56,268 nucleotides of DNA from a virus. Lineage: Duplodnaviria > Caudoviricetes. The stretch is from the IMG/VR virus record IMGVR_UViG_3300036832_001266, positions 1 to 56,268 of that record; one strand, written 5' to 3'. The stretch's first letter is position 1, and each line of letters opens with the position of its first letter. The notes under the pieces are model-generated. The model was given only the letters and a program-made list of their open reading frames with translations, searched no databases and was not told the origin of the DNA. The position numbers and the translations under genes are program-made. Below, one piece after another: positions 27,564 through 55,816 of this stretch.

Positions 27564-29873
27564 CTAAAGAATACGCCCCTGACCTTGCGGATACACCGGT
27601 CCCGGCCACAGCTGGGCGAAGGTCTGCGCCACCGGCGTCGCCTCCGGATGGACCAGGGCGCCTTCCGCCATCTGCATGCGCTCGTTGGCGAGCTTGGCAG
27701 ATTCGATGCGCTCCAGCGACTCGCGCTGCTCGCGATTGTTCTGCAGCTGCATCTGCTGGGTCAGGAACTTCATCTTTTCAGAGAGCAGCTGGAGTTGACC
27801 CTTTTGCTCGATGTCTTTGCTGTTCTGCGCCAGCTCGGCCATCTTGGTCTGCATGTCGCTCATCGCCTTCATCGCCTTCGGATCGGACTGCTGCTGGTTC
27901 TGATCGGGCGAGGCGAACAGCTCGTCGACGTTGCCCATTCCGACCATGGTCGCAACGCGGCGAACGACCGCCTGCAGGTTCCACATCTGCGGGTTCATCT
28001 GCACCAATTGAACAAGCGCCACAGCCTTCATTACACGAATCGTATGACTCGGCGTGTTGGGATCGGCGCGCGGCGAGAGCGTGCATTCGTTGAGCGCCCT
28101 GATGATATCTTCGCGCTCCCATTGCGCCGACGGCGTTGGCGCGGCGCACAACAAGGCATCAGGGTCCTCGACGAACAGATCGCGTAGCAGCGCAAATTCC
28201 TCGGACTGGGCGATGTGCATGCCTTTATGCACAGAATCCAAGACTTTGACGGCTTGGTCCAGCATCGCCAGCGTGGTCCCGACCGGCACGTCCTGGCGGC
28301 CTTCGCCCACCATCAGTTCGGGGGTGCCGCCGACGCGGCGGGCTTCGTCTTCGATGTGTTTGGTGACCTGAACCAACCCCGCCGTGACGTCCTTGTAGGG
28401 CAAGGACATGACATTGTTGCCGATGGGCTGGCCACCGGTGTTGATGCGACAGCCGCCGCCGAGGGGGACACGGAAAGTCATCGTGTCCTGTCTGCCCACG
28501 GTTTCACTGTAGAGAAAGCCCGGCCAGGACGAGAATCCGGCGCTATCGAGCGCCAGCCGCCAGGCGGTGGTGATGGCAGCGGTCGCATTGCCCATGATTT
28601 GCAACAACCCGATGCCGTAAAACCCGAGGCCGTCGACGAAGGGGTATTTCACAATCGGCATGCGTTTGAGGTAGCGATCATCGCCCTCGTTCCAGTTGCG
28701 CCGCACCTCCATGACGGTCTGGCTATCCTTGTCGATCGCCACCTTGTAGGGCAGCGCCAGCCCGGTGAAATGCCCGTCTTCCTTGTGCTCGAAACCGGCA
28801 ACGTCGAGCTCGCAATAGCATTCGTAGACCGTGTGCTTGTAATCCTCCGGACGCTGGGTAAAGACCGAGAGCCCGGCGACATCGCGCTCGGCCTGGTCGA
28901 CGGCATCGACGTCGGGCGGGATCGGCGGTGTCAAATCGGTGTTGATGTATTGTCCGGAGAGCTGCATGCGCCGCATCACGGACTGTCGCATATGGATACG
29001 ATGGGTGACGCGCCCGCAGTCGTGCAGCGAGACCTCGTTGTCGGAGACGATGATGTCATCGGCGTCGATCGAGCGCGCCACCGGCCGGCGCCGGATCGGG
29101 CAGCGATAGACTTTTTTGAATCCCGAGCCGCCGAACCCCTGCAGGAAGAACATCCTGGTCGAATCGGGATAATACTCGCGATCGACGATGGTCAGATAGC
29201 GGTTGAACAGCATCTCCAGGTCTTCGGCCAGGATATCGCGATCGTTGCCCGTGTCCTGCCGCGGCTGCTGCGTCTGCTGCTCCAGAAATTGCCGGCGCGG
29301 GGTCTTGGTGGTTGAGGTGTTCTGGATTTTGACCGGGCCGCCGGCGGGCAACAATTCTCCCCGCGCATTGGCCTGATGCCGCATCACGGCGTCAAGCAGG
29401 ATGGGCGTTCGCACCGTGGTCTGGCCCTCGACCGCGGTGTCGGCGTCGGCGGTGGGCGAGCGCGGGTTTTCGACCTTCAGGGCGAGGTGCTTGATGCCCT
29501 GCGCGCGACGCTCGATCCAATCGCGCCGGGTCTGGATATCGGCGTCGATGCCGTTGAGCAGGTCGTCGCAGATGCGCGCCAATTCGCGCGCATCGATAAA
29601 ATCTGCCAGGTTAGCGTCGTGGTTCTTGGCGTTGCCGGTCGGCTCGCGGCTAATCTTCTTGCCGTCGAGACGGATCAGCAGCGAGCCGTCGGCGCGCTCG
29701 ATGCCGATCTCCTCGACCGGCGCCTCGGCGTCTTCCTGCAGGACGATGGTGATGTCCTCGCCGGTATCGGTCGGCGGGATTTGGCCAGCGATGTCGTCCA
29801 GGTTGCGGTAATGCTCGGTCGGCGTTACCGGGCCCAATCCCCTACCATTGATCGGCGCACCGTTGGCCATCAT
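27564..29873 (-). CDS. Portal protein
   Basis: 769 aa; ARGELLPAGGPVK, GSGFKKVY, GFYGIGL, PVGTTLA motifs; downstream of terL. Confidence 0.9.
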   Translation of the reverse strand: MMANGAPINGRGLGPVTPTEHYRNLDDIAGQIPPTDTGEDITIVLQEDAEAPVEEIGIERADGSLLIRLDGKKISREPTGNAKNHDANLADFIDARELARICDDLLNGIDADIQTRRDWIERRAQGIKHLALKVENPRSPTADADTAVEGQTTVRTPILLDAVMRHQANARGELLPAGGPVKIQNTSTTKTPRRQFLEQQTQQPRQDTGNDRDILAEDLEMLFNRYLTIVDREYYPDSTRMFFLQGFGGSGFKKVYRCPIRRRPVARSIDADDIIVSDNEVSLHDCGRVTHRIHMRQSVMRRMQLSGQYINTDLTPPIPPDVDAVDQAERDVAGLSVFTQRPEDYKHTVYECYCELDVAGFEHKEDGHFTGLALPYKVAIDKDSQTVMEVRRNWNEGDDRYLKRMPIVKYPFVDGLGFYGIGLLQIMGNATAAITTAWRLALDSAGFSSWPGFLYSETVGRQDTMTFRVPLGGGCRINTGGQPIGNNVMSLPYKDVTAGLVQVTKHIEDEARRVGGTPELMVGEGRQDVPVGTTLAMLDQAVKVLDSVHKGMHIAQSEEFALLRDLFVEDPDALLCAAPTPSAQWEREDIIRALNECTLSPRADPNTPSHTIRVMKAVALVQLVQMNPQMWNLQAVVRRVATMVGMGNVDELFASPDQNQQQSDPKAMKAMSDMQTKMAELAQNSKDIEQKGQLQLLSEKMKFLTQQMQLQNNREQRESLERIESAKLANERMQMAEGALVHPEATPVAQTFAQLWPGPVYPQGQGRIL

Positions 29874-31185: not shown

Positions 31186-31356
31186 CTATCCGCCGCGCCC
31201 TTCTATGGCTCGGCGGGTGATCATATAGCCCAGCGCCAATTCCTGCTTTGCCGCCCTCATATAGGCACGCCGTTGCGCACGTTTACGCGCGGCACGGCGG
31301 ATGCCGCGCAAGATGGCGGCGCGGGTTTTGCGATCAGCCCAAGGGTTTTTTCTCAT
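31186..31356 (-). CDS. Small Arg-rich protein (56 aa)
   Basis: Hand-translated MRKNPWADRKTR...; ATGA overlap with the terL stop. Confidence 0.45.
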   Translation of the reverse strand: MRKNPWADRKTRAAILRGIRRAARKRAQRRAYMRAAKQELALGYMITRRAIEGRGG

Positions 31357-33041
31357 CCCCAATGACCGTGCGCCGGGTACATCGGCGGCGCCAGCTTGTG
31401 ATACTTGTTGGCTTCCTCCGCATCGAGGTCGTCTTCATCCGGCAGCGTCGCGAGGCCTATTGCGCGCAAGTGCGCAAGGGCTTGCGACATGGCGTCGGCG
31501 AGATCGTCGTGCTGGCCCTTGCCGAGCACCTCGCATTCACCAATGACCTTGTCGGCCCAGTCCTTGAACACAATTTCCGCACCCACGCCTTCGGCGGGGG
31601 CATAGATCAGCCCGCATTCGAACAGGTTCTGCACCGCGTACATGCGCGCGATCTTGTCGCCTTCTGGGGAGATAAGTTGCACGCCGAAATCCGCGCGATC
31701 GAGGGTCTTGGGATTCTTTGCCAGCCGTTCGGCGATGGTACGGCCGCGCCGGCGCAGCTCCTGGGCGACCGGATAGCCTGACGCTTTGTCCTCGATGAGG
31801 ACTCTGTCGACCTTGTACTTCTTGCAGGTCTCCTCGATCTTCTTGATCAGTTCGTACAGCTCCAGCCGCTCGCTCCAGCCCCACATCAGAATGAGCCGGC
31901 GGTTTTGCCAGATATCTCTACATACACCGAGAACCACCGCGGCCGAGGGATCGTTCTGCTTCTTCTCGGTCTGCGCGGTGTCGAGCGAGAGCACCGTGTA
32001 GCTCATGATCGGGAACTTGGGCCAGGGCATCCCAAACTTCCCACATTCGTCGGGCGTGTACGCGCGCCAGTGCTCGCGTTTAATGACGCCGCCGCCACGC
32101 GGTGCTGGGCGCTGCTGGTATTGACCGGCGTAGGCCCACGAGCCTTTTTCTTTTTCGATGGTGGCGACGGCTTCGGGCGAGAACCGCTCCGGCCATGCCA
32201 GGTCACCGTCTTCGGTGCGCGGATCGGTCCAGCCGAGCGCATTGAAAGGTTCCCGCCCGGCTTCGTATTCCATCGGCACCATCAGGTGGGTGTAGGGCCA
32301 GCCCTGTTCGAGGATGAAGCCGGAAATGTCACCTTGATGCACCCGCTGCATGATAATGACGATGGCACTATCATCAAGATTATTGAGCCGGTCCGTGATC
32401 GTTTCGCGAAACCAACGCACAGTATCGGTTCTAACGATATCGCTTTCTGATTTATGTACGTCATGGGGATCGTCGATGACAACCCGATCGCCGCGTTCGC
32501 CAGTGCCGATGCCCTTGACCGACGACGCGAACTTCGAGCCGGTCTTGTCGTTGGTGATCTTGATTTCGCCTTCCTTTTCGAGCGCGAATTTGTCACCCCA
32601 CAGCTCCTTGTATTTTTCGCTCATGACGAGCTTGCGGAACTTGGTGTTGTCACGTTCGGTCAACCCGCTGGAGTAGGAGAAGGACACGAAGCGCAGGTGG
32701 GGCATGCCCATCGGGCCCCATTCCCAGGCTGGCCAGAACACGTTGACCATGAGCGATTTCATGCTGCCGGGCGGGACGTTCACCAATAATCTTGTGATCT
32801 TGCCGAAGGTGATGGCTTCGAGATGTTCGGCGATGGCGTCGAGCAGCCAGCCCTCGACCAGTTTGGTTTCCGGTTCGAGCACGCTCCAGAAGTAGCGCAC
32901 GAAACTTACCAGGCCTTCGGGTCGGGCCTGGACCGAGCGCTCGCGCCGCACGCGGATTTCGTCCTGCAGCGCCTGCAGCGAGGCTTCCGCGACCTCAGGG
33001 GCGACCAGCTTCTCCAGTTCGGTTTTCTTGCGACGCGGCAT
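31353..33041 (-). CDS. terL: Terminase large subunit
   Basis: Walker A NVPPGSMKS, Walker B VVIDDPH, IIMQR, nuclease LSLDTA, IEDKASG, HDDLADA. Confidence 0.95.
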   Translation of the reverse strand: MPRRKKTELEKLVAPEVAEASLQALQDEIRVRRERSVQARPEGLVSFVRYFWSVLEPETKLVEGWLLDAIAEHLEAITFGKITRLLVNVPPGSMKSLMVNVFWPAWEWGPMGMPHLRFVSFSYSSGLTERDNTKFRKLVMSEKYKELWGDKFALEKEGEIKITNDKTGSKFASSVKGIGTGERGDRVVIDDPHDVHKSESDIVRTDTVRWFRETITDRLNNLDDSAIVIIMQRVHQGDISGFILEQGWPYTHLMVPMEYEAGREPFNALGWTDPRTEDGDLAWPERFSPEAVATIEKEKGSWAYAGQYQQRPAPRGGGVIKREHWRAYTPDECGKFGMPWPKFPIMSYTVLSLDTAQTEKKQNDPSAAVVLGVCRDIWQNRRLILMWGWSERLELYELIKKIEETCKKYKVDRVLIEDKASGYPVAQELRRRGRTIAERLAKNPKTLDRADFGVQLISPEGDKIARMYAVQNLFECGLIYAPAEGVGAEIVFKDWADKVIGECEVLGKGQHDDLADAMSQALAHLRAIGLATLPDEDDLDAEEANKYHKLAPPMYPAHGHWG

Positions 33042-34758: not shown

Positions 34759-34898
34759 GATAGCCTCCTGATGCTCAAAAAGATTGATCGTCGACCAACC
34801 ATAGCACAATCGATCGACGCGGAAGGCCGCTGTGGTGCGGTGTCAAAACCTGCGGCCTTGTCGGGCGGCCACGCCCTATCCGCGTCGAACGCGATGCT

Positions 34899-38495: not shown

Positions 38496-38707
38496 TTCGC
38501 CCCGTAACGCGCCTTCAACTCCGGCGTCACCTCAACCTTACGCACCTCACTTGCTGGACCTTGAGAGCCGTCGCGGCGCTCAATTGCTTTAGCAACCTCG
38601 ACTGATGCGTCGACCAAGTAGCGACCCATACGGCGCTGAAACTTGTTGCTGGATCGCACCTTTCCTAAACCAGTTTTGAGCCATGATCCCCCTGTCGAAA
38701 GCCCCAT
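38492..38707 (-). CDS. Hypothetical protein
   Basis: 71 aa, GGAG RBS. Confidence 0.5.
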   Translation of the reverse strand: MGLSTGGSWLKTGLGKVRSSNKFQRRMGRYLVDASVEVAKAIERRDGSQGPASEVRKVEVTPELKARYGAK

Positions 38708-39096
38708 CGCGTTTCTCCATAGGCTGCGCTCCTTCGCTAGGGGAGGGAGGCCACTTGCTTGCCTTCCTGCTCTCTCTCCTATCTATTGGAACCGGACATT
38801 GCGTTCGCAATTCCAAACAAGCGAGAGTAGAAACCCTAGGGAGAACTTCGCCGTACTCGCTCGGGTGTCCGTTGAGGGGGCGTCCTTTTCGGCACGCTGT
38901 GGTGGACCGTTCCACAAGTACGACGTTGGCTCGTCGCGTTATCCCAATCCAGCCCGAGCTATCGCTAGACCCATCTCCATCGGCTAGCGGGGGCGAAGGA
39001 CCCTTGCGGGCAGGAAACCCCCGGCGTGGTGTTGCGCGTCAGTGCTAGATGGGATAAGGAAGGGTCGCTGTCCCAAACGGCAAATCCAATCTAGCC

Positions 39097-39133
39097 AGGC
39101 CCCGTAGCGCAAGCTCTGGGGCCTTCATTTGTT
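39097..39133 (+). terminator. Intrinsic terminator-like hairpin
   Basis: AGGCCCCG-TAGC-GCAA-GCTC-TGGGGCCT followed by TCATTTGTT. Confidence 0.5.
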
Positions 39134-39315
39134 GTGGGCGCTCAATAGCTTATTACGAAAAGCTGGTAACCCGCACAACTTCATCATGCCAGCACTGCGC
39201 GCTGATTCGCTCAAGTAAATTCCGCAGATATCTCCGATATTATCCGTGATGTCCCCGATATCCCCACAATCCACAAATCGCAGTTTGTTCCCGGAATGGT
39301 TGCTAAGGGCAACTA

Positions 39316-39705
39316 TCAGACGTCGTAACCAGCGATGAGCGCTTCTGCCAAATCACGTTCCCGCATTTCTTTCAGAACACGTCGCAGCGCTTTGCCACTC
39401 TGCTGTGAATTTTCCCGCTGCGTCTTCGGCTGCAAGTGAGCCGGGTTCACGCAAAGCGTGTTGAAGCAAAGATGATCGAGCGTGTGACCTGACTCGATTC
39501 CCCCCACTAACAGTTCATAAACGACACGGTGCGCGAGATAGGTGCCAGATGGCGATGCCGTGGTCGTGCGGCCATAGCTCCCACTGACAGGGCCGCGCCA
39601 ATGCCAGCATCCATCCTCGTTGGATTTATCAATCCAAGCCAGAACACGATCGTACCACGCATCCCAATCCCTTGCCTTAACACGTCTGTAAGCCATTGTA
39701 TTCAC
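39316..39705 (-). CDS. HNH endonuclease (HNH_3-like)
   Basis: CWHWRG, AHRVVY, LDHLCFNTLCVNPAHL...REN. Confidence 0.9.
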   Translation of the reverse strand: MNTMAYRRVKARDWDAWYDRVLAWIDKSNEDGCWHWRGPVSGSYGRTTTASPSGTYLAHRVVYELLVGGIESGHTLDHLCFNTLCVNPAHLQPKTQRENSQQSGKALRRVLKEMRERDLAEALIAGYDV

Positions 39706-39724
39706 TTGCCTTAATTATTTAATA

Positions 39725-39761
39725 CTGACATATTGACATGATGTCAGAGTGAGAATATAAG
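39725..39761 (+). promoter_or_regulatory. Sigma70-type early promoter with overlapping inverted-repeat operator
   Basis: TTGACA (39733) - 17 bp - TATAAG (39756); CTGACAT...ATGTCAG (39725-39747) straddles the -35. Confidence 0.75.
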
Positions 39762-39803
39762 GCAAAACATCAGGTAAGGCAACCCAAGCAAAGGGAGACC
39801 AAC

Positions 39804-39983
39804 ATGCGCAAAATGACAAAGCCCGAACGGATGGTGTGGAACCGCACGCATCCCGATTATCGCTGCCGCGTCGGCGGCGTGCCCTACGTGCTGGAACTGA
39901 ACTTGGATAACGGCGCCACCGAGCTGGTGCCGTTGGCATCGTCACGCAAGCTGAAACAGCTGCAGGGCGAAACCGCGCGCTAA
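39804..39983 (+). CDS. First early gene, hypothetical (59 aa)
   Basis: GGGAG RBS; MRKMTKPERMVWNRTHPDYR...; stop lies in the ribozyme stem III loop. Confidence 0.6.
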   Translation: MRKMTKPERMVWNRTHPDYRCRVGGVPYVLELNLDNGATELVPLASSRKLKQLQGETAR

Positions 39984-40019
39984 TGCGCGGTCGTGCCGTG
40001 AGCGGCACCTGATGAGCCC
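39965..40019 (+). ncRNA. Type II hammerhead ribozyme
   Basis: GGGC-GAAA-CCGCGC(gctaat)GCGCGG-TC^-GTGCCG(tgag)CGGCAC-CTGATGA-GCCC: all core nucleotides and three perfect stems. Confidence 0.92.
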
Positions 40020-40036
40020 AAACACAGGAGACCAAG

Positions 40037-40252
40037 ATGTCCAACCCAAAACTTTCGCTCGATGTCGCGAGCCCGATCGAAGTGGCCCGCGTGCTGCGCC
40101 AGGCCGCTGACACGTTCGGCAGCGATGCGCTCGGCCTCGAAGCCTCATGGCAGGAGGTAGGTCCAGGTCGCGTGTGGATGCGCATCGCTCGTGAGCTGGA
40201 TCGTGCCGCGATGCGCTGCGAGCAGATCACGAACCAGGAGGGCTGGCGATGA
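40037..40252 (+). CDS. Early hypothetical protein
   Basis: AGGAG RBS. Confidence 0.7.
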   Translation: MSNPKLSLDVASPIEVARVLRQAADTFGSDALGLEASWQEVGPGRVWMRIARELDRAAMRCEQITNQEGWR

Positions 40253-40440
40253 GCGATCTGATTGTGAACAACCACGGCTCCATCTTCCTGCTCTCGCCGG
40301 TCACCGAGGCCGGCGAGGCCTGGATCGATGAGCACATCCCCCAAGACGCAATGACTTGGGGCGGCGCCGTCGTTGTCGAACACCGCTACATCGAGGCCAT
40401 CGTGGCCAGTGCGCTCGCCGATGGGCTAGAGGTGAAGTGA
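40249..40440 (+). CDS. Early hypothetical protein
   Basis: NHGSIFLL...VVVEHRYI...DGL; ATGA coupling. Confidence 0.75.
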   Translation: MSDLIVNNHGSIFLLSPVTEAGEAWIDEHIPQDAMTWGGAVVVEHRYIEAIVASALADGLEVK

Positions 40441-40625
40441 TGCGCGGTCTTTTTATCAGCTCACCCACCGGCGGCCGCATCTACGTGGCCGAGCGCTCGC
40501 GCAAAGGCAGCAGCAAACTGTTGTGGTCCGTCATGCCCGCGCACGACGGGCCCGACGTTCGTATCGAAGCCGGTAACGTACCCTACCGCATCCGCCGGCA
40601 GGGATACAGACATCTAGGAGACTGA
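40440..40625 (+). CDS. Early hypothetical protein
   Basis: TGATG coupling, GAGG RBS. Confidence 0.55.
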   Translation: MRGLFISSPTGGRIYVAERSRKGSSKLLWSVMPAHDGPDVRIEAGNVPYRIRRQGYRHLGD

Positions 40626-40700
40626 CGTGGTTAAGCCGTTCACACTGGTCAACTACAATCCAGCCGACATCTTCAACGACGACATCCCGAGCTGAGGAGG

Positions 40701-40736
40701 GACACGCTGTCGTTGCCATGGTGACGACAGCGTGTC
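40701..40736 (+). promoter_or_regulatory. Long hairpin between an SD and the next start
   Basis: GACACGCTGTCGT/ACGACAGCGTGTC 13-bp perfect stem. Confidence 0.6.
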
Positions 40737-40746
40737 ATGATAGCGA

Positions 40747-41031
40747 ATGGCTACGAAAGCAACAGCGAGCATCTCGCGGCAGATCAGCCAGGCCGAGCGC
40801 GACCTGCAGAAATATGCGGCCGGCAAAGCCTACAAGCTCATGCAAGATGTCGCGCAATTTGCCGATATCGCCGAGCTAACGACAGGCGCCGCTTCGTCTT
40901 GCCTCGGCTCGACGTTTCTGCGGTTGGCTGCAACCATCGCAGTCAATTCCAATGTTTCCAGAGATTGGTGGCTGCAAACGTGCGCTGCGACTTATGACTG
41001 CTGCGACGAGGTCAAGGAAAAAGTGGGATGA
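40747..41031 (+). CDS. Hypothetical protein
   Basis: 94 aa, ATGA-coupled to the HTH gene. Confidence 0.65.
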   Translation: MATKATASISRQISQAERDLQKYAAGKAYKLMQDVAQFADIAELTTGAASSCLGSTFLRLAATIAVNSNVSRDWWLQTCAATYDCCDEVKEKVG

Positions 41032-41279
41032 CGCCTTCTCAATACCGCGCCGCGCGCACCGAGCTGGGCTGGAGCCACGCCAAGACCGCTCAGGTGCTCG
41101 GCGTGCATGAGCGCACGATATTTCGCTACCAAGCCGGCCAGACGGAAATCCCGGAGCCCGCAGCGCGCTTGCTGCGTCTGCTGGTCCGTCTGCACCTGAC
41201 TATTCCCGCCTACAAGTTCAATGACATCGTCGAGGAGCTGGACCATGGCCACAAGTATCAACCTGCTCGCCGAGCTTGA
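41028..41279 (+). CDS. XRE-like helix-turn-helix protein
   Basis: MTPSQYRAARTELGWSHAKTAQVLGVHERTIFRYQAG...IP. Confidence 0.85.
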   Translation: MTPSQYRAARTELGWSHAKTAQVLGVHERTIFRYQAGQTEIPEPAARLLRLLVRLHLTIPAYKFNDIVEELDHGHKYQPARRA

Positions 41280-41406
41280 GCGCATCGCCAGCGAGATCGA
41301 CCACACCGCTTCCGATCTGCAGTTGCTGCGCCGGCAGGTTTTCAGCTTGGTCATGGCGCTCAAGAAGGCCGAAGGCATCGGCCGCATGCTGGGCGACATC
41401 CCATGA
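41245..41406 (+). CDS. Hypothetical protein
   Basis: GAGGAG RBS, coupled. Confidence 0.55.
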   Translation: MATSINLLAELERIASEIDHTASDLQLLRRQVFSLVMALKKAEGIGRMLGDIP

Positions 41407-41672
41407 CCGCCGTCATGAAATGCGCGGGCATCGCTGGACCGTTTCACTGCGCCGACGTCGGTCGCTATCTCAAGTGGTGTGACTTCGAAGCTCTCAACGG
41501 CCGCGGTCTTGCGCTCTTCACCGACGATGTCGACAAGGCGATGAAGTTCACGAGCAAGTTCGAGGCCCTGGTGTTCTGGCGCACACAATCGAAGACCATG
41601 CCATATCGATTTGATGGCAAGCCCAATCGACCGCTCACCGCCTACCACATGGAGGTCACGGACGTACCATGA
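41403..41672 (+). CDS. Hypothetical protein
   Basis: DGKPNRPLTAY motif; coupled. Confidence 0.7.
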   Translation: MTAVMKCAGIAGPFHCADVGRYLKWCDFEALNGRGLALFTDDVDKAMKFTSKFEALVFWRTQSKTMPYRFDGKPNRPLTAYHMEVTDVP

Positions 41673-41917
41673 GCGACATCGTTTTCCATCTGCGCCGCCG
41701 GGCTGCCATTTGGGACAACCATCCCGGCCGCCGAGACGGAAGGCACAGTACTCTCGATACCCAAGCCGCCGACGAGATCGAGCGGCTACTGGCTGAGATC
41801 AAGCAGCTCCGCGCAGAACGCGCCCTGCTCTGTCCCCACGGGGTCGACATTTCCCGCTTCGACTGCCCATCCTGCGCATCTCGCGCACTCGATCACCGGC
41901 ATCGCACACATGACTGA
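41669..41917 (+). CDS. Hypothetical protein with AADEIERL motif and Cys cluster
   Basis: GGAGG RBS; paralogue of 35623..35940. Confidence 0.7.
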   Translation: MSDIVFHLRRRAAIWDNHPGRRDGRHSTLDTQAADEIERLLAEIKQLRAERALLCPHGVDISRFDCPSCASRALDHRHRTHD

Positions 41918-43457
41918 GCTTCGCCCCTATCAGGAAGAGGCTCTGGAGGCCATTAGAGAGACCGTGGGGCAGGGGGTGAAGCGCTTGGTAGTCCAAGCCC
42001 CGACCGGCTCCGGAAAAACGCTCCTGGCGGCCGCCATGGTCGAGGGCGCCCGCCGCAAGGGCAACCGACTGGTGTTCGTGGTCCCGGCACTGATGCTGAT
42101 CGACCAGACCGTCGAGATGTTCCACGCCGAGGGCATCCGCGACATCGGCGTCATCCAAGCTAACCACGTCATGACGGACTGGTCGAGGCCTGTGCAAGTG
42201 GCGTCGATCCAGACCATCCGAGCGCGTGGGGCCTACCCCGAGGCCAAGCTCGTAGTGGTCGATGAATGCCACCAGCTGCATCAGCAGCACGCCAAATGGA
42301 TGGGGCATTTCGACAAGGAGACTGGCCTGCTCGTGAACTGCGCTGAAGGCTGGGAAAATGTGCCGTTCATCGGATTGTCGGCAACGCCCTGGACCAAAGG
42401 TTTAGGACGCTATTTTGAGAGCCTGCTGGTGATGAGCACTACGGCCGATCTGATCGAGCTGGGCTTCTTATCCAAGTTCAAGGTGTATGCCGCTGACCAC
42501 CCAGACTTGTCTTCGGTCAAGACCGTGGCTGGCGACTACCACGAGGGACAACTGTCTGCGGTTATGCAGGAGAGCCCGTTAGTGGCCAACGTGGTCGAGA
42601 CCTGGCGCAAGTTATGGAACAAGGACAAAACGCTGCTGTTCGCCGTCGATTGCGCGCATGCGCAAACGCTCCGCGATCGTTTCGTCGAGGCTGGCATCGC
42701 CTGTGGCTATCAGGACGCCAACACGCCAAGCAGCGAGCGCGCCGCGCTCAAACGCGCGTTCCACAATGGCGAGCTTAAGGTGATTGCAAACATCGGCACG
42801 CTGACCACCGGCGTCGACTGGGATGTACGTTGCCTGCAACTCGCGCGACCGACCAAATCCGAAATGCTGTTCGTGCAGATCATCGGCCGATGTTTGCGTA
42901 CCGCGGAAGGAAAAGAACATGCGCTGATCCTCGATCACACTGACACGACAGAGCGCCTAGGCTTTGTCACAAACATTCACCACGAGCACCTTGATGGTGG
43001 TCGCCTCGACAAGAACCAGCCAACCAAGCGCGGGCCGCCGCTGCCAAAACCTTGCCCGCAATGTGCGTACCTGATCCCGGTCGGGTGCAAGATTTGTCCC
43101 GAATGCGGATTCGAACGCAAGGTGGTGTCCGGCATCTTTGAACGCGAGGGTGAACTAGAAGAGCTTAGCTTCGATGGGCGTCCAAAGAAGATGCGCAACG
43201 GTGCGCTGTTTCCTTATACCAATGCGGAGAAGCGCGCGTTCTATCTCCAGCTCAAGGCCTACGCCCTGACCAAGCCGCACTACAAGCCGGCGTGGCCGGA
43301 CGCAACCTTCCGCGACAAGTTCAAGGAATGGCCACGATGGACATGGAAGCAACTTCCGCCCGCGCCCATGGTCGGTATCGAAGTGCATCAATTCATCCGC
43401 GCTAAGTTCATCGCCTGGGCAAACGATCCGCGCAACCCGAACCGCAAGCAAGCATGA
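41910..43457 (+). CDS. SF2 DExH helicase with C-terminal Zn finger (RadD/YejH-like)
   Basis: LRPYQ, APTGSGKT, DECH, SAT, QIIGRCLR, CPQC..CPEC. Confidence 0.93.
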   Translation: MTELRPYQEEALEAIRETVGQGVKRLVVQAPTGSGKTLLAAAMVEGARRKGNRLVFVVPALMLIDQTVEMFHAEGIRDIGVIQANHVMTDWSRPVQVASIQTIRARGAYPEAKLVVVDECHQLHQQHAKWMGHFDKETGLLVNCAEGWENVPFIGLSATPWTKGLGRYFESLLVMSTTADLIELGFLSKFKVYAADHPDLSSVKTVAGDYHEGQLSAVMQESPLVANVVETWRKLWNKDKTLLFAVDCAHAQTLRDRFVEAGIACGYQDANTPSSERAALKRAFHNGELKVIANIGTLTTGVDWDVRCLQLARPTKSEMLFVQIIGRCLRTAEGKEHALILDHTDTTERLGFVTNIHHEHLDGGRLDKNQPTKRGPPLPKPCPQCAYLIPVGCKICPECGFERKVVSGIFEREGELEELSFDGRPKKMRNGALFPYTNAEKRAFYLQLKAYALTKPHYKPAWPDATFRDKFKEWPRWTWKQLPPAPMVGIEVHQFIRAKFIAWANDPRNPNRKQA

Positions 43458-48157: not shown

Positions 48158-48742
48158 TTACTTAAGTTTTCCACGCAGGACAGCAGTTGTCAGACACGAG
48201 ATATCCTCCAACTGATCCCGAAACATGAACTTCGTGCCGGGATCAAGATCGGGAGGGGGGGCGGTATGATGCTCACGGATGAATCTCTGTTTCGTTACCC
48301 ATCCCAAGATCAGAACAATGGGATCATTGTGGAAGAACCAATCCCGAGCACAAACGCCGACAAGGATGTCTGCCGGGCTTTTCGCAAGAAAACGATTCTT
48401 GGTCACCGGCCAAATTAGAAACATGGTCTTTGATCCCTTCACGTCGATCAGCTTCTTCCGGTAGTTGACGTCCCATCCGCGGTCGCATTTACGCCCCCAA
48501 TCAAGCGTCTTGGGATCACGGCCAATATAGAGGCAGAATGCACATTCGCAGACCTTGCCCATCGCCTGATGACGCACGCTCTTGTCGATCCCGGGCCGCG
48601 CAAGGGCACGGGATTTCTCCTTTTGCTTTTTGGCGTAACCCAGAACCGAGCGCTCGCCCCATCCCATCGATTCCTTAATCCATTCCAGCGGGACGTCGAC
48701 CTCGACGGGTACTGCCGGTAGGAGCAGCCTCGAATCCCACAC
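48158..48742 (-). CDS. PD-(D/E)xK nuclease-like protein
   Basis: GKVCECAF...DRGWD...IDVK; GGAGG RBS before GTG 48742. Confidence 0.6.
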   Translation of the reverse strand: MWDSRLLLPAVPVEVDVPLEWIKESMGWGERSVLGYAKKQKEKSRALARPGIDKSVRHQAMGKVCECAFCLYIGRDPKTLDWGRKCDRGWDVNYRKKLIDVKGSKTMFLIWPVTKNRFLAKSPADILVGVCARDWFFHNDPIVLILGWVTKQRFIREHHTAPPPDLDPGTKFMFRDQLEDISCLTTAVLRGKLK

Positions 48743-49778
48743 AGGTCCAGCCCTCCATTTGTCCGCGCGCAAATAATTCGATCTTGGTTTCGGGCGTGTC
48801 GAAATACGGATACATCTGCTCGATTGCCTGCCGGATTTCCGGCGGCTTGGCACTGTGCTTAGTACGTCGATGGCAAAACACCGACGAAAACAACTTGACC
48901 GGCTTTGGCATATCGCCGCGCGTACCGGCGAGCAGCACCTCATGCCGATTGCGAAACAGCAGCCCGGTGCCAATCCGCATTTTGTCCCATATGGCATGGG
49001 TTTTGTAGGTGAAGCCCCAGCTTTCAATGATGTCGATGGCACGAAAAATATTCGATGATGTACACCACAAGAACAGAATCGCGTCTTTGGCTGCCAGATC
49101 GCTGATTGATTGTTTACCGATCTTAAATGCCGCAATCTCTTCGTCCGACATCACCGGATAATGATCCTCCGGCATGCGATGCGATTCGTGGCCCTTTGGC
49201 GTATAGGTCTCGAACGTCCACGGTGGGTCGGCGTAAATCAGCGGGAAAGGCCCGAGCCTATCGGACGCAATCCTTACTTTGGCCCTGGTCGCAATCTTCT
49301 GATGCCGCTCCTCCCGACGCTCCTTGTACCAATAGGGCGATGCCTCCTCGATCAGCCACTCCATCGTCGGCAATATCTCTTGCTGTTTGGCCTCGGCGTA
49401 GACCTTGCGGCGCTCACCAATCGGCAGATAGCTCGCGCGCTGGCACTCGATAGCGCGGGCCTTTTGGAGATTAAGCCGCAGAAGCTCAGCCGTGAAACTA
49501 GGAGCGCTCCGCTCCTCATTTTTCTTTGGCCGGCCGGTTTGACCCCGCAGCATCTTCCGCAGCATAACGCCAAGACTGCAGCGAGCATCAAGATAAAGCT
49601 CGCGCACTGGTCGAAGATGCTCAGGGCGATAGAAACCGGCGCTCTTAAGGGCCGCTTCCAGGCCAGCGGTTGCAGCGCCAACTTGGATCACCTGCTCGGG
49701 CTCTTTGGCTGCCATCAGCCCCCGCCGCAACGCCGCGATCTGCCTCGGTAGCTCGGCAACAATGATCTGCTTGTTCAT
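48675..49778 (-). CDS. MT-A70 family N6-adenine methyltransferase with N-terminal extension
   Basis: IYADPPW, HYPVM, LFLW, WGFTYKT, RNRHE, HSAKP, IELFAR. Confidence 0.92.
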   Translation of the reverse strand: MNKQIIVAELPRQIAALRRGLMAAKEPEQVIQVGAATAGLEAALKSAGFYRPEHLRPVRELYLDARCSLGVMLRKMLRGQTGRPKKNEERSAPSFTAELLRLNLQKARAIECQRASYLPIGERRKVYAEAKQQEILPTMEWLIEEASPYWYKERREERHQKIATRAKVRIASDRLGPFPLIYADPPWTFETYTPKGHESHRMPEDHYPVMSDEEIAAFKIGKQSISDLAAKDAILFLWCTSSNIFRAIDIIESWGFTYKTHAIWDKMRIGTGLLFRNRHEVLLAGTRGDMPKPVKLFSSVFCHRRTKHSAKPPEIRQAIEQMYPYFDTPETKIELFARGQMEGWTCVGFEAAPTGSTRRGRRPAGMD

Positions 49779-54896: not shown

Positions 54897-55088
54897 ATGC
54901 CGCTGATATGCGACTACAGCAACTGCGTTAACGTCATACCCAAGAGCGGGTTCAGGTTGATGGTGACAGAAATCGCCGACGACAACCAGGTCACCGAGGT
55001 AGTTTTCTGTTCCTACGAGCACGCGATCCTGTACCTTGAGAGGCGATCCAGCGACGGTGAAATCCTGCGCGCGCAATATGGCACATGA
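54897..55088 (+). CDS. Small Cys-containing protein
   Basis: CDYSNC...FCS; coupled. Confidence 0.6.
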   Translation: MPLICDYSNCVNVIPKSGFRLMVTEIADDNQVTEVVFCSYEHAILYLERRSSDGEILRAQYGT

Positions 55089-55816
55089 TTGCCAGCGCGG
55101 TCGCCATAGTCTGCCTTGGCCTTGCTAAGGGCGGCTTCGTCGGACTTGGTCTGCTTGCCACACCAATACTGATGCTCTCATTGCCACCGCTCGACGCAGT
55201 TGCGGTGCTCATCCCCGTCATGCTGGCCCAGGATATCTTCTCGGTGTGGGCTTATCGACGCGAGTACGATCCCCGCAACCTCCGCATCATGCTGCCGGGC
55301 GTTCTAATCGGCATAACCGTTGCGTGGCTCTTGCTTGTGGAGATAACGCACATTCGACTACTCGTGGGGCTAACACTGCTTTGGCTCGTAATCACGCAGA
55401 CATTCGGTCCATCATCGCACCGATCTTCCCCCGTCGTTGGAACCTTTTGGGGCGTCGCGTCGGGCTTCGCTGGTCTCGTCTCAAACGCCGGTAGCATAGG
55501 CTTTCTGATGTACGTATTTCCACAACGCCTTGCGCCCCGCGTCTACGCTGGGACCATGGCTATCTTCTTTGCCGTGGTCGATCTGGCGAAGCTGCCCCCG
55601 TTCATCGGAATGAGACAATTCACACAGGAAAATCTTGAGCATTCGGCGTTCCTGATTCTGCCGGCCCTGGCAATGAACTGGATCGGAATCATTCTCGTCC
55701 GTCGCATCAACCCTCGACTGTTCTACCGACTAGCAACCGCCCTGGTCTTCTGCATAGCCGTCATCTTGATATGGCAGGATTGGAGTCAATCTGACGGGGC
55801 GCCGAGGACCGAATGA
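55085..55816 (+). CDS. TauE/SafE (TSUP) family membrane transporter
   Basis: GLAKGGF.GLG, multiple TM helices, YAGT..IFFA.V..AKLPP. Confidence 0.85.
   Translation: MIASAVAIVCLGLAKGGFVGLGLLATPILMLSLPPLDAVAVLIPVMLAQDIFSVWAYRREYDPRNLRIMLPGVLIGITVAWLLLVEITHIRLLVGLTLLWLVITQTFGPSSHRSSPVVGTFWGVASGFAGLVSNAGSIGFLMYVFPQRLAPRVYAGTMAIFFAVVDLAKLPPFIGMRQFTQENLEHSAFLILPALAMNWIGIILVRRINPRLFYRLATALVFCIAVILIWQDWSQSDGAPRTE

Follow-up and report, generated by a model that had tools for sequence, protein, structure and literature searches.

A type II hammerhead ribozyme motif with a short loop I, overlapping the end of a small gene in an early phage operon

Type II hammerhead ribozymes, represented in Rfam by RF02276, are common in bacteria near prophage genes, and several of them often flank single genes, according to the survey by Perreault et al. 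2011 (PMC3088659). The same survey describes a trio of hammerheads in Agrobacterium tumefaciens that cleaves when expressed in E. coli, as well as a tested type II hammerhead in which removal of the pseudoknot lowered the rate more than 100 fold at 0.5 mM Mg2+, and it also states that many hammerheads do without the known contacts (PMC3088659). In Desulfovibrio vulgaris, a cyPhyRNA-seq study detected cleavage, in vivo as well as in vitro, by three type II hammerheads that neighbour phage-like genes (PMC8782182). The processing of polycistronic mRNA by ribozymes into pieces of differing stability has been put forward as a role for such elements, a proposal that is not yet proven (PMC6765202). 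The insulator RiboJ, in which a hammerhead is joined to a hairpin, raised expression of the gene behind it 2-10 fold at the protein level and about 2 fold at the transcript level (PMC6206723).

Here we describe a 55-nt motif of this kind in the genome of an uncultured phage. The window, by which we mean the whole stretch of DNA that was analysed, is the entire IMG/VR record of this phage (56,268 bases, estimated 81% complete), and the motif is a further, well-formed member of a class that recurs widely between phage genes. It is a type II hammerhead of the kind described in 2011 and is unusual only in a 19-nt overlap with the preceding gene, ORF1, and in a loop I of 4 nt. As in the RF02276 ribozymes described by Perreault et al. 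(PMC3088659), the core, the circular permutation, the short stem II and the intergenic position among phage genes are all present. The differences from RF02276 are that loop I has 4 nt as against about 10 in the Rfam consensus, that the pseudoknot between loop I and the 3' tail, which is typical but not universal in type II, is absent, that the score falls 1 bit under the gathering score, and that the 5' 19 nt also encode the end of ORF1. The arrangement resembles that of the Agrobacterium tumefaciens trio in placing a ribozyme directly before a small gene in a phage-type operon, where processing of a polycistronic mRNA is presumed, although the window's record holds a single copy and not a cluster such as the one described there (PMC3088659). 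The Desulfovibrio vulgaris ribozymes likewise combine the type II form with neighbouring hypothetical or phage-like genes, and those cleaved in vivo and during in vitro transcription (PMC8782182), whereas cleavage of the present motif is a prediction from sequence. The likeness to RiboJ lies in the proposed mechanism, in which upstream RNA is removed and a hairpin-headed 5'-OH leader is left before the RBS (PMC6206723).

The structural genes of the phage lie on the minus strand up to about 38 kb and include the large terminase (31353-33041), the portal (27564-29873), a head protein and tail spikes. A rightward operon begins at 39804 with small ORFs, which are followed by genes for an HTH protein, for a helicase (41910-43457), for an exonuclease and for an annealing protein of the Erf type. 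Among deposited phages, none has a terminase more than 43% identical to this one, and no DNA matches to deposited phages were found for the early region (38500-42500). The features at the start of the rightward operon are as follows.

39733-39761 (+): promoter-like site, TTGACA (39733-39738), a 17-nt spacer and TATAAG (39756-39761), read by eye and agreeing with 11 of 12 consensus positions
39804-39983 (+): ORF1, 59 aa, no assigned function; its last six codons (QGETAR) and TAA lie within the ribozyme
39965-40019 (+): type II hammerhead ribozyme motif, 55 nt, aligned over its full length to RF02276 at 36.0 bits; its MFE fold is a three-way junction
39965-39968 (+): 5'-side strand of stem II, GGGC (positions 11.4-11.1), paired with 40016-40019
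39969-39971 (+): core G12 A13 A14, from the sequence and the RF02276 alignment
39972-39991 (+): stem III hairpin (A15.1 to U16.1), whose loop carries the ORF1 stop TAA (39981-39983)
39992-39993 (+): predicted cleavage site, C17 (39992) / G1.1 (39993), from hammerhead numbering applied to the RF02276 alignment
39993-40008 (+): stem I hairpin, 6 bp formed by GUGCCG (39993-39998) with CGGCAC (40003-40008), loop UGAG
40009-40015 (+): core CUGAUGA (C3 to A9), from the sequence and the RF02276 alignment
40016-40019 (+): 3'-side strand of stem II, GCCC (positions 10.1-10.4), completing a stem of 4 bp
40026-40030 (+): RBS AGGAG of ORF2, starting 7 nt past the motif and 6 nt ahead of the ATG; kept in the relative L006
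40037-40252 (+): ORF2, 71 aa, no assigned function, the first gene after the ribozyme; its ATG (40037) is 18 nt past the motif

Searches of Pfam and PHROG gave no matches for either ORF1 or ORF2. The promoter-like site is situated in the divergent intergenic region ahead of ORF1, and the promoter scan does not list it because the scan rule demands a T at the last -10 position. The early promoter upstream of the motif named in the initial annotation corresponds to this TTGACA-17-TATAAG site. Its distance from the ribozyme is not a conserved feature: in the relative that keeps the ribozyme, another, overlapping ORF and not a promoter region precedes ORF1.

Three further genes in the window merit mention. 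An HNH endonuclease gene (Pfam HNH_3, PHROG 826; 39316-39705, minus strand) separates the late from the early operon, which diverge from each other; in its place the relative L005 has some 740 nt of non-homologous sequence containing a plus-strand ORF, which suggests, from this sequence comparison, that the HNH gene is a mobile homing-endonuclease insertion. A gene for an MT-A70-type DNA methyltransferase (48675-49778) lies on the minus strand amid the otherwise plus-strand early and replication region. Beyond the Erf gene, the right end of the record encodes a TauE/SafE-family membrane transporter (55085-55816, plus strand), and this gene may be either an accessory gene of the phage or host DNA flanking a prophage.

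Read directly along the plus strand of 39965-40019, the order of elements is GGGC GAAA CCGCGC-GCUAAU-GCGCGG UC GUGCCG-UGAG-CGGCAC CUGAUGA GCCC. Stem II is made up of the pair G10.1-C11.1 (G40016-C39968) and three further pairs, and stem III of A39972-U39991 followed by CCGCGC (39973-39978) with GCGCGG (39985-39990), giving 7 bp to which an optional G39979-U39984 wobble could be added, closing a CUAA loop. All of the invariant hammerhead core bases are present (C3-A9, G12-A14, A15.1-U16.1, H17 and G10.1-C11.1). The MFE fold and the covariance-model alignment agree on three helices in the type II permutation, with loops capping stems I and III and with stem II open. The complete type II hammerhead, cut after C39992, that the initial annotation had proposed is therefore borne out in its core, stems and permutation by the sequence, the Rfam alignment and the fold, and the two details it added, an ORF1 stop codon in the stem III loop and an ORF2 RBS less than 10 nt downstream, can both be read in the sequence. 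With its first 19 nt (39965-39983) doubling as ORF1 coding sequence including the stop, the ribozyme offers a ready-made system for studying whether its folding is disturbed by translation.

The hammerhead motif at 39965-40019 is real. Alignment to RF02276 (Hammerhead_II) runs end to end and scores 36.0 bits against a gathering score of 37 bits, a cut-off that is operational and says nothing of structure; the assignment to the Rfam type II family thus holds as a full-length alignment and falls short at the gathering score, and because 36.0 bits lies below 37, the motif is absent from an Rfam scan at the gathering threshold. The corresponding E-values are 3.5e-6 when 181 nt are searched, 0.0011 when all 4227 families are run on the whole window, and 2.6e-7 for this one family. 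The core pattern GAAAC..GTC..CTGATGA occurs once in the window as against 0.02 times expected from 100 shuffles, a count that leaves the three helices out of account. In isolation the 55 nt fold with an MFE of -28.2 kcal/mol (z -2.8), and 1 of 200 shuffles folds equally well. R1, a model derived from an alignment of 31 further phage hammerheads with short loops, gives 58.7 bits at 39965-40019 and at most 10.7 bits elsewhere in the window, although this score is not independent evidence because the 31 sequences were obtained through a pattern taken from the motif itself.

No further hammerhead was found in the window, where the next-best RF02276 match reaches 13.9 bits. Nor did the whole-window Rfam scan at E up to 1 reveal other ribozymes; besides the hammerhead it returned only a sub-threshold match to int-alpA RNA (RF02996) on the minus strand at 34799-34886, with 30.2 bits against a gathering score of 35.8 and an E-value of 0.026 for the whole window. 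A match to Mu-gpT-DE over the ORF2 RBS, at 16.4 bits against a gathering score of 49, was treated as chance.

The motif was compared with other phage hammerheads by means of a pattern comprising its core and inner stem II, which matched at least 120 viral contig stretches and is biased towards the motif's own stem II. Among the matches listed, many stretches contain 2-6 hammerhead copies, and both hairpins reach at least 4 bp in 123 of 140 distinct raw matches compared with 0.1% of shuffled controls. For 115 distinct sites among the matches listed, including those of the window and L005, we asked whether loop I and the 3' tail could form a pseudoknot of at least 4 bp. Such a pseudoknot was found, among these matches, in 27 of 28 sites with a loop I of 10 nt or more, in 17 of 21 with 7-9 nt, in 5 of 24 with 5-6 nt, and in 2 of 42 with 3-4 nt. 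The short-loop, pseudoknot-free form is a large subclass of the type II hammerheads in phage contigs, and the window's copy belongs to its size range.

The helices of this subclass were assessed in an alignment of 31 short-loop viral-contig hammerheads (A3), in which 99% of the positions concerned are paired, a figure inflated because the rows were pre-selected for pairing, and both-sided changes occur at 11 of 17 pairs. The fourth pair of stem II covaries, being A-U in 21, G-C in 8 and unpaired in 2 of the 31 sequences; the motif at 39965-40019 has G-C. A conserved U and G border loop I (U-NNN-G) in 26 of the 31 sequences, and the motif's 4-nt loop I is one base shorter. The base directly after stem II is mostly A in short-loop hammerheads. 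Together, the conserved U and G of loop I and the A after stem II could mark a tertiary contact that takes the place of the pseudoknot. At 12 loci chosen for short-loop examples (L008, L014, L030, L033, L041, L042, L050, L051, L053, L072, L073 and L084), 11 of 14 RF02276 matches fall below the gathering score, at 28.5-35.1 bits, which argues that a sub-threshold Rfam score characterises the subclass and does not mark the individual copy as defective. Since the gathering score misses most of the sampled short-loop copies, default Rfam annotation under-counts phage type II hammerheads, and the curated threshold that passes over the window's copy does the same for most of the short-loop phage hammerheads sampled.

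The position of the ribozyme relative to neighbouring genes was surveyed with a crude longest-open-frame rule, so that gene calls are heuristic, at 105 sites with an upstream open frame among the matches listed. The upstream stop codon lies 1-6 nt ahead of the ribozyme in 49 of the 105 sites, 7-20 nt ahead in 30 and farther away in 13, and within 20 nt of the ribozyme 5' edge in 79 of these matches. It falls inside the ribozyme in the other 13 listed, in stem or loop III (3), in stem I (2) or at the TGA of CUGAUGA (8), the last group probably being an artefact of the frame rule. Stops in stem or loop III are rare among the matches listed, the 3 of 105 being those of the window, its relative and L126. 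A start codon with an RBS follows at a median distance of 25 nt (IQR 22-30; found in 106 of 115 listed sites), as compared with 18 nt in the window. From these stop and start positions, the layout of stop, ribozyme, RBS and start is the norm, and the window's copy is slightly more compact.

Homologues of ORF1 were identified in two viral contigs, at 88-90% and 73-76% identity, and ORF2 has three homologues at 97, 66 and 63% identity, of which the two more distant are protein entries only. Sequence and alignment searches with ORF1 and ORF2 in viral, metagenome and genome collections and in a protein database detected no orthologous loci beyond the two viral contigs. A DNA pattern tuned to the lineage found three hammerheads in metagenomes, in unrelated contexts and with no ORF1 or ORF2 homologue at E < 1e-3. 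The first relative, L005/L006, has a mosaic structure despite its collinearity with the window: the block from ORF1 through the ribozyme to ORF2 (39803-40254) is 90.7% identical, the left flank is non-homologous, with the window's HNH gene and promoter region replaced and another ORF overlapping into ORF1, and on the right flank ORF3 differs from that of the window. The relative's ribozyme, the only RF02276-type hammerhead in its record, reaches 33.3 bits and shows 2 changes over its 55 positions, the first in loop III, where the stop is kept, and the second in loop I (UGAG to UAAG), with no stem or compensatory change. The ORF1 codons immediately upstream of the ribozyme carry many changes and a 3-nt indel, and this pattern fits, at the level of sequence, with constraint on the ribozyme. 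Conservation at the locus is weak evidence, because one relative alone keeps the motif and does so without a compensatory change.

The second relative, L007, shares only the first ~45 codons of ORF1 (39801-39936, 84.6%), after which its C-terminus is different and longer and is overlapped by the start of an unrelated gene. No hammerhead is present in L007, whose whole record gives no RF02276 match at E up to 0.1, and the break in homology lies about 29 nt upstream of the motif. The comparison of L005/L006 with L007 indicates that the companion of the ribozyme is ORF2, and not ORF1 or the promoter. The stop codon in loop III would most simply be a by-product of a cassette junction, the ORF1 frame running into the cassette until it meets a first stop.

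We consider it probable that 39965-40019 is a genuine type II hammerhead in the mRNA of the rightward early operon, cutting itself and separating ORF1 from ORF2 and the later genes. After synthesis of the 3' strand of stem II and folding of the 55 nt, the RNA would be cut between C39992 and G39993. The upstream piece would contain the entire ORF1 with its stop and would have the stem III hairpin and a 2',3'-cyclic phosphate at its 3' end; because the stop codon is 5' of the cut, translation of a cleaved ORF1 mRNA would still terminate normally. The downstream piece would be headed by the stem I hairpin, bearing a 5'-OH, and would start 33 nt ahead of the AGGAG of ORF2. The role put forward in the initial annotation, a cut in the early polycistronic mRNA that leaves ORF2 mRNA with such a 5' end, is the usual hypothesis for these elements (PMC6765202); that the cut would replace RNase III-type processing is a conjecture. 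In general, RNAs with a 5'-OH or a 5' hairpin undergo RNase E-type decay more slowly, and a 3' hairpin impedes exonucleases. The cut would uncouple the stability and translation of ORF1 from those of ORF2 and the later genes, as with the RiboJ insulator, which is engineered and of a different hammerhead type, making the analogy one of function only and not of family membership. We infer that cleavage would proceed at a useful rate in the cell and that the cut would affect expression.

The main doubt concerns the rate of cleavage. Between loop I and the 3' tail no pseudoknot of at least 4 bp was found; the best complement is 3 bp (GUG:CAC), and it is destroyed by the loop I change in the relative. 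The motif may be slow because it has no pseudoknot, the loss of which lowered the rate of the tested type II example more than 100 fold (PMC3088659). Taken further, it would be a true hammerhead by descent that is 'minimal' in lacking tertiary contacts and cleaves too slowly at cellular Mg2+ to matter, where it persists either in the form of two GC-rich hairpins at the junction of gene cassettes or as a relic that travels along with ORF2. This reading, which we hold to be unlikely, gains from a loop I one base short of the U-NNN-G kept in 26 of 31 sequences, and the L007 homology break about 29 nt upstream and the location of the block between unrelated segments in L005 fit the mosaic junction that it supposes. 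It has to contend with the fact that every core base is intact and that both differences from the relative are in loops. The subclass as a whole would be hard to explain if inert, given that 40 of 42 sites with a 3-4 nt loop I among the matches listed have no pseudoknot and that the helices covary in rows pre-selected for pairing; moreover, many hammerheads do without the known contacts, according to Perreault et al. (PMC3088659). Folding was also considered. With at least 65 nt of naked upstream RNA, the predicted pairing probability of stem II, which has 4 bp and open ends, is about 0 in an energy model that ignores the core's own contacts and ribosomes on ORF1. We dropped this as an argument against folding, since a low value is typical of the class, with a median of 0.02 over 113 sites and 67% below 0.1 among the matches listed, and so does not discriminate. 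A competing pairing of GGGCGAAA (39965-39972) with UUUCGCUC (~40054-40061, early ORF2), which displaces stem II in the 191-nt MFE structure, was likewise set aside at an ensemble frequency of 0.002; by reading of the L006 sequence, one pair of GGGCGAAA with UUUCGCUC becomes a C-C mismatch there.

That the locus holds no ribozyme at all, and that two adjacent hairpins serve as a terminator, an RNase site or a protein-binding site with a coincidental core match, we find scarcely credible: although the Rfam score is formally below the gathering score, the RF02276 E-value is 2.6e-7, chance would give the core-only pattern 0.02 times in the window, and the same architecture recurs at no fewer than 123 other phage sites. 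A terminator in particular was rejected because neither hairpin is followed by a T-run and the terminator scan lists nothing there. A more elaborate proposal, a stronger form of one made in the initial annotation, accepts the ribozyme and places it under the control of ribosomes, such that a ribosome translating or terminating on ORF1 unfolds the 5' half and the cut, and hence ORF2 expression, reports ORF1 translation. When the ORF1 stop occupies its A site, a ribosome would shield the RNA to about 39993, including all of stem III and the cut site. The geometry is accordingly plausible, since this estimated footprint spans stem III and the cut site, the cut is 3' of the stop, and the loop III stop at 39981-39983 is kept in the relative. 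Stops in stem or loop III nevertheless number only 3 of 105 among the matches listed, two of them in the window's lineage, as against 49 of 105 at the commonest place 1-6 nt ahead, and an ORF1 that simply runs into an inserted cassette of ribozyme and ORF2 is the simpler account, with L007 showing a different, longer C-terminus and no ribozyme; we therefore think gating by ribosomes improbable. The still more ambitious combination, in which short-loop hammerheads use an undescribed tertiary contact built on the U...G of loop I and ribosomes in addition gate the window's copy, tying ORF2 expression to ORF1 translation, strikes us as a long shot. Self-cleavage that separates ORF1 from ORF2 is the reading we prefer.

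The 3' tails of the short-loop hammerheads show one further peculiarity. At least 5 nt of UCAUCAG, the exact complement of the core CUGAUGA, is found in 14 of 60 short-loop tails, where about 3 would be expected, and in 0 of 55 of the long-loop group, among the matches listed. Tails of this type occur for example in L014, L030, L051, L107 and L126, and also in L130; the window's tail has none. An alternative hairpin formed by such a tail could turn the ribozyme off or lock the cleaved product.
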